A DNA stretch of 5,241 nucleotides from a virus. Shown here piece by piece: positions 1,163 to 1,227 of this stretch. Where the stretch lies: positions 1 through 5,241 of the IMG/VR virus record IMGVR_UViG_3300029482_000033; one strand, 5' to 3'. The position numbers were made by a program, and so were the translations under genes. Under the pieces are notes generated by a model. The model was not told the origin of the DNA and ran no database searches. It worked only from the letters and a program-made list of their open reading frames with translations. Each line of letters opens with the position of its first letter. The first letter of the stretch is position 1.

Positions 1163-1208
1163 GTCACCCTGGCACATTTACCCTCTTGATGTAAATGTGC
1201 CAGGTGAC
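1163..1208 (+). promoter_or_regulatory. Near-perfect inverted repeat: an 18-bp stem with a single C bulge and a 9-nt loop 'cctcttgat', in the VP3-VP1 intergenic region
   Basis: gtcaccCtggcacatttac (1163..1181) pairs with gtaaatgtgccaggtgac (1191..1208). Candidate ssDNA origin element (minus-strand priming site or Rep nick hairpin) or RNA stabiliser/terminator. No T-run follows it. Confidence 0.6.
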
Positions 1209-1209
1209 A

Positions 1210-1227
1210 CCAAAATGACAATTTTGG
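1210..1227 (+). promoter_or_regulatory. Second hairpin (ccaaaat-gaca-attttgg, perfect 7-bp stem) whose 3' arm overlaps the VP1 Shine-Dalgarno (GGAG 1226..1229)
   Basis: Read from the sequence. The stem would sequester the first two SD bases, so VP1 translation could be structure-modulated. Confidence 0.45.

Follow-up and report, generated by a model that had tools for sequence, protein, structure and literature searches.

A conserved intergenic hairpin with a phiX174-like CTTGAT loop as a candidate replication origin of gokushoviruses

Gokushoviruses are among the most abundant single-stranded DNA (ssDNA) phages in gut, marine and freshwater viromes. Described origins close to the locus reported here include those of phiX174 and of the pC194/pUB110 plasmids. 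In the phiX174 record, the replication origin is annotated at position 4306 (rep_origin), within CAACTTGATATTAATAACACTATAGACCAC; it reads CAACTTG^ATA, and protein A cleaves at CTTG^ATA. Plasmids of the pC194/pUB110 family are nicked at CTTG^ATA as well, and by established classification pC194-family initiators belong to the same Rep superfamily as phiX174 A. The pC194 origin (...CTTATCTTGATAATAAG...; sequence from PMC7072734) has CTTGATA between a short inverted repeat, CTTAT/ATAAG, so this nick motif is also presented in a loop. Here, we describe a hairpin with CTTGAT in its loop, located between the scaffold gene VP3 and the capsid gene VP1 of a viral sequence of 5,241 nucleotides (nt) (IMG/VR record IMGVR_UViG_3300029482_000033, positions 1 to 5,241; this whole stretch is called the window). 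The hairpin is the window's copy of a non-coding element of ~47 nt that is found in almost all gokushoviruses. The element is the best candidate so far for the unmapped gokushovirus replication origin. It is probably a viral-strand (rolling-circle) origin recognised by the replication initiator VP4, with the nick site displayed in the hairpin loop. A search of the open-access literature, with the older Chp1, Chp2, SpV4 and phiMH2K papers outside its range, returned no description of the element or of a mapped gokushovirus origin.

In the window, two perfect arms at 1168-1181 (CCTGGCACATTTAC) and 1191-1204 (GTAAATGTGCCAGG) are separated by 9 nt. Outer pairs between GTCA (1163-1166) and TGAC (1205-1208), with one bulged C, extend the stem to 18 bp. 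A preliminary description of this DNA, made from the sequence alone, had called such a stem at 1163-1208 exceptional for the genome, and the folding results agreed. As DNA, the region 1150-1245 folded at -25.4 kcal/mol, compared with -8.7 +/- 2.3 kcal/mol for dinucleotide shuffles (z = -7.3, reached by 0/200); as RNA, z was -5.6. Hairpin 1 was the most stable of all 50-nt segments of the genome, at -18.1 kcal/mol (genome mean -4.2, standard deviation 2.7). The preliminary description was also right to place CTTGAT in the loop, except that the loop has 9 nt and CTTGAT makes up only its 3' two-thirds. The parts of the element in the window are:

1163-1181, + strand: 5' arm of hairpin 1, GTCAC C CTGGCACATTTAC, with one bulged C; covaries in relatives
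1182-1190, + strand: loop of hairpin 1, CCTCTTGAT; the first 3 nt vary in relatives, CTTGAT (1185-1190) is near-invariant
1191-1208, + strand: 3' arm of hairpin 1, GTAAATGTGCCAGGTGAC; its opening GTAA is kept even in relatives where it is unpaired
1205-1211, + strand: TGACACC box, 14 nt after CTTGAT; candidate VP4 duplex binding site
1168-1214, + strand: covariance-model match to the family element, 68.3 bits, E = 6.6e-13
G1188^A1189, + strand: predicted VP4 nick, solely by analogy with phiX174 CAACTTG^ATA

By itself, CTTGAT is not rare: 7 sites were found on both strands of the window, with 4.4 expected. It is the context, rather than CTTGAT itself, that makes the site at 1185-1190 special. 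The match at 1168-1214 was the only one of the family covariance model in the window, which thus held no other conserved CTTGAT hairpin; the presence of one had been named beforehand as counter-evidence. A second CTTGAT lies at 145-175 in a small palindrome, ATCAAGA gct TCTTGAT, within an open reading frame at 13-234; as the family model did not match it, we treated it as chance.

To avoid circularity, gokushovirus genomes were sampled by VP1 protein homology only, which gave 80 contigs; of these, 73 reached a length of 4 kb or more. A first covariance model, trained on 25 uniform copies of the element, scored at least 25 bits in 54 of these 73 contigs, and 59 of the 73 had any match among those listed, once per genome unit. 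A second model, run with filters off, added contigs L155, L147, L163, L165 and L150 and the Bdellovibrio phage phiMH2K. Altogether, the element was present as a single copy per genome in at least 80% of the VP1-selected gokushovirus contigs. Wider searches agreed. With a 61-nt query, matches were obtained in 265 GenBank microvirus records and almost always fell into intergenic DNA without annotation. In IMG/VR, scanned for an exact pattern, the same arrangement was seen in dozens of contigs of 4-6 kb. That scan gave 119 loci, of which about half were discarded: these were 16-mers that large contigs matched by chance, and no hairpin accompanied them. Between MG945213 and the window, the sole nucleotide match by megablast was 41 nt of the hairpin; in MG945213 the element is placed after VP2 and a canonical terminator, not before VP1.

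Among cultured phages, Escherichia phage EC6098 carries the element at 1681-1727. In phiMH2K it lies at 3297-3344 (GTTCGGCTAC...CCTACTTGTTGTAA...GTAGCCGAAC TCACAG; second model, E ~ 0.01). In Chlamydia phage Chp2, a perfect 14-bp hairpin with an unrelated stem sequence encloses CTTGAT, and GTGATAGC comes next; as the only CTTGAT site of this phage, the copy was accepted by eye, its match to the second model being weak (E = 0.25). Both phiMH2K and Chp2 were missed by the first model. No convincing copy was seen in SpV4. A search for plasmids with a Rep gene and the element, and without a capsid gene, returned two records only: a Citrobacter plasmid of 171 kb and a 4.5-kb E. coli 'plasmid' entry, uninspected, whose size is that of a gokushovirus genome. 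The former (Citrobacter sp. TSA-1, NZ_CP053574.1, locus L216) holds a complete gokushovirus gene set at 3383-7559, from the initiator through the capsid and downstream genes; the locus sits in a 171-kb IncF plasmid with identical ISNCY transposase genes on both flanks. Counted from match coordinates, the element lay within 150 nt of a contig end in ~13 of 59 contigs, with ~4 expected (L144, L146, L188, L190, L193, L204, L210, L211, L158, L195, L148, L167 and L143). This excess may come from assemblers breaking at the inverted repeat rather than from biology.

Alignment to relatives showed that the stem covaries and that CTTGAT and the downstream box are conserved, strongly against the lack of conservation that the preliminary description had named as refuting. 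In the family alignment, 12 of the 14 stem pairs had double changes (146 cells), and the covariation score was 0.461, compared with 0.143 for shuffled alignments (reached by 0/500) and 0.06-0.11 for slid controls. Fitting the alignment to the model inflates these counts, but the margin over the controls is large. Close relatives showed compensatory swaps, from CCTGG/CCAGG to GGTGG/CCACC and GCTGG/CCAGC. The 5' part of the loop varied in sequence and length among relatives. CTTGAT was found in 52 of 55 distinct elements, and the variants CTTGTT, CTAGAT, CTCGTT and CTTGTC all retained the G. The GTAA that follows was conserved whether paired or not. The TGACACC box was present in 42 of the 55, at a fixed spacing from CTTGAT of 14 nt (39 elements) or 15 nt (16 elements), independent of stem length. 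The consensus of the ungapped 3' part reads CCTACTTGATGTAACTGTGCCAAGTGACACC.

The same conservation was seen in k-mer counts over 67 dereplicated genomes. The most widely shared 11-mer, CTTGATGTAAC, occurred in 31 genomes and the most widely shared 13-mer, CTTGATGTAACTG, in 30, with every occurrence intergenic; the best coding 11-mer and 13-mer reached 20 and 12 genomes, respectively. By this measure, no other nucleotide string was as conserved in the gokushovirus genomes sampled as this non-coding core.

VP4 of the window matched phiX174 A by BLASTP (E = 3e-5). Its HUH motif HYHAICF aligned with HFHAVHF of phiX174 A, and its two-tyrosine motif AYVARYVTKK corresponded to FYVAKYVNKK, with YVAxYVxKK in common. 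Judged by these sequences, VP4 is a homologue of protein A in which the catalytic signatures are preserved nearly unchanged. The replicon thus has what is found at origins of HUH Reps: a cognate initiator in the same replicon, an exposed CTTGAT and a single conserved copy in cis. The CTTGAT core noted earlier as common to the phiX174 gene-A nick region is indeed the protein A nick site, CTTG^AT. A position matrix built from the gokushovirus elements ranked the true phiX174 origin 5th of 10,772 positions. The covariance model had no match at the phiX174 origin, 4299-4328; its only match in phiX174 (L135), at 774-806, was at chance level (E = 0.69). A strict phiX174-type 30-bp origin, in which recognition sequence, AT-rich spacer and key sequence follow one another linearly and no hairpin is formed, was rejected, as the stem 3' arm GTAAATGTGCCAGG takes the place of the AT-rich spacer.

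If the element is a viral-strand origin, it could work as follows. The inverted repeat would fold on the supercoiled replicative form or on displaced ssDNA, leaving CTTGAT unpaired on the 3' side of the loop. VP4 would dock on GTAA, at the start of the 3' arm, and on the TGACACC box 14-15 nt downstream. It would then cut 3' of the invariant G (G1188^A1189) and become linked to the 5' end. After one round of synthesis, VP4 would cut the regenerated site and seal the circle for packaging.

In seven genomes, the whole element, hairpin and TGACACC box included, was on the strand opposite every gene. These genomes come from different studies, and their VP1 identities are 29-59%:

L152, 4113-4161, - strand: inverted element
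L129, 1823-1870, - strand: inverted element
L130, 2231-2278, - strand: inverted element
L040, 3048-3093: inverted element
L025, 2818-2863: inverted element
L218 (PQ006295.1), 2386-2434: inverted element
L219 (MG945221.1), 865-911: inverted element

Five of the seven had a coding-strand genome T/A skew of -0.33 to -0.34, an extreme excess of A over T. Over 71 normal genomes the mean was +0.016 (standard deviation 0.14), and only L159 was equally low. At four-fold sites of VP1, the skews of the inverted genomes were -0.88, -0.64, -0.57, -0.49, -0.48, -0.04 and +0.31, compared with +0.43 (standard deviation 0.40) for 97 same-strand genomes (Mann-Whitney p = 1.6e-4, ignoring phylogeny). The nearest same-strand relatives of the inverted genomes were mostly at +0.4 to +0.8. 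Skew tends to follow the element rather than the genes, as expected if the element determines which strand is displaced or packaged and spends time single-stranded. It is possible, though on balance doubtful, that the element is the viral-strand origin of the whole Gokushovirinae, that the inverted ~5-7% package the strand complementary to their mRNA ('negative-sense' microviruses), and that the reversed T/A skew is the mutational footprint of this.

Several observations weigh against an origin nicked by VP4. About 10-15% of the sampled genomes had no convincing match to the element. Without CTTGAT and the bases preceding it, the matrix ranked the phiX174 origin only 552nd of 10,772, with 9/21 identities; the GAC at the same spacing in phiX174 is hence only suggestive. 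The AT-rich spacer of the phiX type is absent from the gokushovirus element. The earlier proposal of a candidate origin is backed by the comparative data and by the A-type motifs of VP4, and the likeness to the phiX174 origin beyond ACTTGAT is marginal. The skew association carries no phylogenetic correction, and some genomes depart from it: L040 and L025 with a reversed element, and L159, L188 and L085 with the normal orientation. Moreover, the element lies within a cluster of hairpins, enriched both upstream and downstream, as in complementary-strand origins, and neither orientation nor skew can tell whether the element is a viral-strand origin, a complementary-strand origin or a packaging signal.

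These last points lead to a complementary-strand origin, in which the hairpin cluster on the incoming viral ssDNA would recruit RNA polymerase, primase or the PriA primosome. Such origins are known from G4 (oriC), phiX174 (n' site), M13 (hairpins B and C) and plasmids (ssoA). The cluster is on one strand. The 45 nt 5' of the element were more structured than shuffles (mean -6.5 vs -3.6 kcal/mol, p = 5e-8), often as GC-rich, terminator-like hairpins, and in 33 of 55 relatives the TGACACC box formed the 5' arm of a downstream hairpin (p = 2e-7 vs a shuffled tail). Orientation and base skew track the strand of the element, as they also would for a minus origin, and the TGACACC box resembles a -35 hexamer. 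Conserved hairpins of other microvirus clades have been read in this way, without proof (PMC9865509). However, the conserved bases agree with the nick site of the Rep family to which the phage's own initiator belongs, and with no known priming signal, and no Rfam family matched the element. The conserved loop motif and the fixed 14-15-nt spacing of the box look like protein-recognition geometry. In addition, known minus origins are host-specific, whereas E. coli, Chlamydia and Bdellovibrio phages share the conserved element, which favours recognition by a phage protein over host priming enzymes. A complementary-strand origin, the main rival, accounts for the hairpin cluster and the strand specificity no less well than a viral-strand origin. 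We regard it as unlikely. Plus and minus origins may also lie adjacent or overlap in one intergenic module, in which case the two are no true rivals.

A sigma-70 promoter with the TGACAC box as -35 was rejected: TANNNT at the spacing of a -10 hexamer, 16-18 nt downstream, was found in 2 of 55 elements, vs 2.5 at control offsets, and a promoter scan of the window called none at the element. In phiX174 (L135), the downstream half of the matrix scored best at 3904-3934 (GGATTGACACC), ~30 nt 5' of the annotated transcription start at 3962; the box thus resembles a -35 there, and the gokushoviruses are without a -10 partner.

VP3 preceded the element in 59 of 64 mapped genomes. The next gene after this VP3-element pair was VP1 in 24 genomes, VP4 in 21 (one reversed) and VP8 in 14. 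Two circular gene orders were seen (L139-L215), VP3-element-VP1-VP2-VP8-VP4-VP5 and VP1-VP2-VP3-element-VP8-VP4-VP5; VP3 and the element remain linked across both, with one rearrangement breakpoint at the 3' side of the element. Linkage to VP3 whatever the next gene speaks for another phage function on the packaged strand or replicative form, such as a packaging or procapsid-docking signal or a regulatory operator, perhaps coupled to VP3. The TGACACC box often has an inverted partner downstream, which would make a palindromic duplex site. On the other hand, the element follows VP2 or VP1 instead in L001, L125, L129, L130 and L219, nothing ties the motif to VP3 or the capsid proteins, and its identity with a nick site would be a coincidence. 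To our knowledge, phiX174-type packaging requires no separate pac site. A function of this kind seems improbable to us.

Directly downstream of hairpin 1, the window has a second hairpin, CCAAAAT (1210-1216) / ATTTTGG (1221-1227), which the minimum free energy (MFE) fold of the DNA lengthens by TGAC (1205-1208) / GTCA (1229-1232). Both this extension and the outer 4 bp of hairpin 1 draw on TGAC 1205-1208, so that they compete:

1205-1232, + strand: extended hairpin 2, TGAC.CCAAAAT gaca ATTTTGG.GTCA, with the box in its 5' arm and part of the Shine-Dalgarno (SD) sequence in its 3' arm
1226-1229, + strand: SD sequence of VP1, GGAG, 8 nt 5' of the ATG at 1238, overlapped by hairpin 2

The preliminary description had reported a 7-bp stem at 1210-1227 overlapping the VP1 SD, and had suggested control of capsid translation. 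The stem and the overlap are there; translational control as the conserved function was not supported. The overlap is confined to the window and close relatives, and hairpins built on the box also occur in genomes without a nearby start codon. The SD hairpin of the window is one instance of a recurrent second hairpin on the TGACACC box.

An RNA-level element would be an SD-hiding translational operator, an RNase III or stability hairpin, or a transcription terminator between VP3 and VP1. Besides the overlap with GGAG at 1226-1229, the 18-bp stem would make a strong RNA hairpin, and GC-rich upstream hairpins are common. Nevertheless, hairpin 2 was missing from both the MFE structure and the centroid of the RNA fold of the window. 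Downstream of the element, about half of the genomes continue with VP4 or VP8 instead of VP1, and in EC6098 the VP1 start is 90 nt further. In L001, the element directly follows a canonical terminator. A purely structural role of the RNA would not require loop and box to be kept as sequence, yet they are. In the seven inverted genomes, a transcript would carry the complement of the element, which contradicts a conserved RNA-level function. The element acts at the DNA level, and we hold an RNA-level role to be very unlikely. An intrinsic terminator was also rejected: the stem is followed by ACCAAAATG without a T-run, and a terminator scan found 3752-3777 and not the element. That site, AGGGGTGTTTCAC/GTGGAACACCCCT followed by TTTTTTTCTTT, with its T-run reaching ~3787, lies between the gene of a 40-amino-acid (aa) basic protein and VP4; with such a textbook example, canonical terminators are evidently used elsewhere in the genome. 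Across the whole window, Rfam returned no family at E <= 1.

The arms around a short central region also recall a dif-like XerC/XerD recombination site for lysogeny, with the inverted repeat as recombinase core. Some gokushoviruses, the enterogokushoviruses, do integrate via phage dif motifs (PMC7062461). These motifs were found in only 48 of 855 genomes (PMC7062461), compared with the near-universal element, and a dif site is a 28-bp 11-6-11 arrangement, whereas the spacer of the element is at least 9 nt, not 6. The dif motif of EC6098 has been proven experimentally, and the dif-deleted phage still infects its hosts (PMC7062461). This motif is at 1-28 of EC6098, separate from the element at 1681-1727. 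Furthermore, in one E. coli chromosomal prophage and one Citrobacter plasmid-borne prophage the element is internal, between VP3 and VP1, and not at the boundary. We rejected a dif/Xer site, whose probability we consider negligible.

The first 73 bases of the window (1-73) are repeated exactly at 5169-5241. This terminal redundancy indicates a circular genome of 5,168 nt. By whole-genome megablast, the closest GenBank genomes were faecal gokushoviruses, with ~77% nucleotide identity. Every recognisable gene is on the + strand:

646-1158, + strand: VP3 scaffold gene (Pfam Chlamy_scaf, E = 3.7e-25)
1156-1158, + strand: VP3 stop codon TGA; the element begins 5 nt downstream
1238-2953, + strand: VP1 capsid gene (Pfam Phage_F, E = 7e-168), start ATG at 1238-1240
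2963-3502, + strand: VP2 gene
3599-3721, + strand: gene of the 40-aa basic protein
3797-4756, + strand: VP4 replication initiator (Pfam PF23343, E = 3.5e-21)
4798-5106, + strand: VP5 gene (Pfam Phage_ORF5)

Two further sequence features were seen. Just 5' of the element, a 32-nt exact direct repeat, GCGAAGCAAGCTGAGGAAGCGGCGAAAGCCGC, occurs at 1036-1067 and 1081-1112, spaced 45 nt apart; it is an in-frame duplication of 15 codons in the C-terminal part of VP3. In the intergenic DNA downstream of VP5, an alternating GC purine-pyrimidine tract at 5138-5173 forms an imperfect palindrome, TGCGCGTGCGTGCGCG gttt CGTGCGTGCGCGCGCA. Contig L132 has a comparable tract, GCGTGCGCACGCACGCGCGC, at ~186-205, immediately 5' of its CTTGAT hairpin.

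With EC6098 1681-1727, a specific and testable origin candidate is at hand in a culturable E. coli phage. If the element is an origin, the design of phagemids or vectors could build on it, and it would provide a sequence marker with which to annotate and orient thousands of metagenomic microvirus genomes. It would also show how the linear phiX-type origin relates to the hairpin-type origins of HUH replicons, and the inverted copies would be a natural test of a flip in packaged-strand polarity.

Among known systems, the intergenic region of M13/f1 resembles the element as a cluster of hairpins on the packaged strand; it houses both plus and minus origins, and its initiator nicks within a palindrome. 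It belongs to an unrelated family, with gpII as initiator and a separate packaging hairpin. Similar in design are the origins of circular Rep-encoding ssDNA (CRESS-DNA) viruses, geminiviruses and circoviruses, where, as in the element, a covarying stem, an invariant loop motif and an adjacent (in the element, candidate) Rep-binding sequence are combined, and where the site is cut by an HUH Rep. Those origins differ by a nonanucleotide loop (TAGTATTAC / TAATATTAC), a single-tyrosine Rep with a fused helicase, and iterons in place of a single box. For reekeekee- and roodoodoo-microviruses, conserved intergenic hairpins with compensatory substitutions and conserved loops are described, and replication-related roles are proposed (PMC9865509). 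They belong to other clades and have other sequences; a possible minus-strand role is discussed, and the passages on these hairpins report no nick-site motif (PMC9865509).

The pC194/pUB110 origins share the nick motif and its presentation in a loop with the element. They are plasmid origins, however, with a far shorter stem, no TGACACC box and a separate single-strand origin. The phiX174 origin (Bullavirinae; 30 nt, CAACTTG^ATATTAATAACACTATAGACCAC, in gene A) comes from the same family and is cut by a homologous HUH initiator with a near-identical tyrosine motif (YVAKYVNKK in phiX174, YVARYVTKK in VP4). The two loci have in common the ACTTGAT core, a GAC-containing box 15 nt after CTTGAT, a single copy, and location on the gene-sense strand. 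The phiX174 origin, which has been mapped experimentally, differs in lying within the Rep gene, in having an AT-rich spacer and in lacking a hairpin. The gokushovirus element is intergenic; its motif is exposed in the loop of a hairpin, and where phiX174 has the spacer, it has the 3' arm of a stem that covaries.

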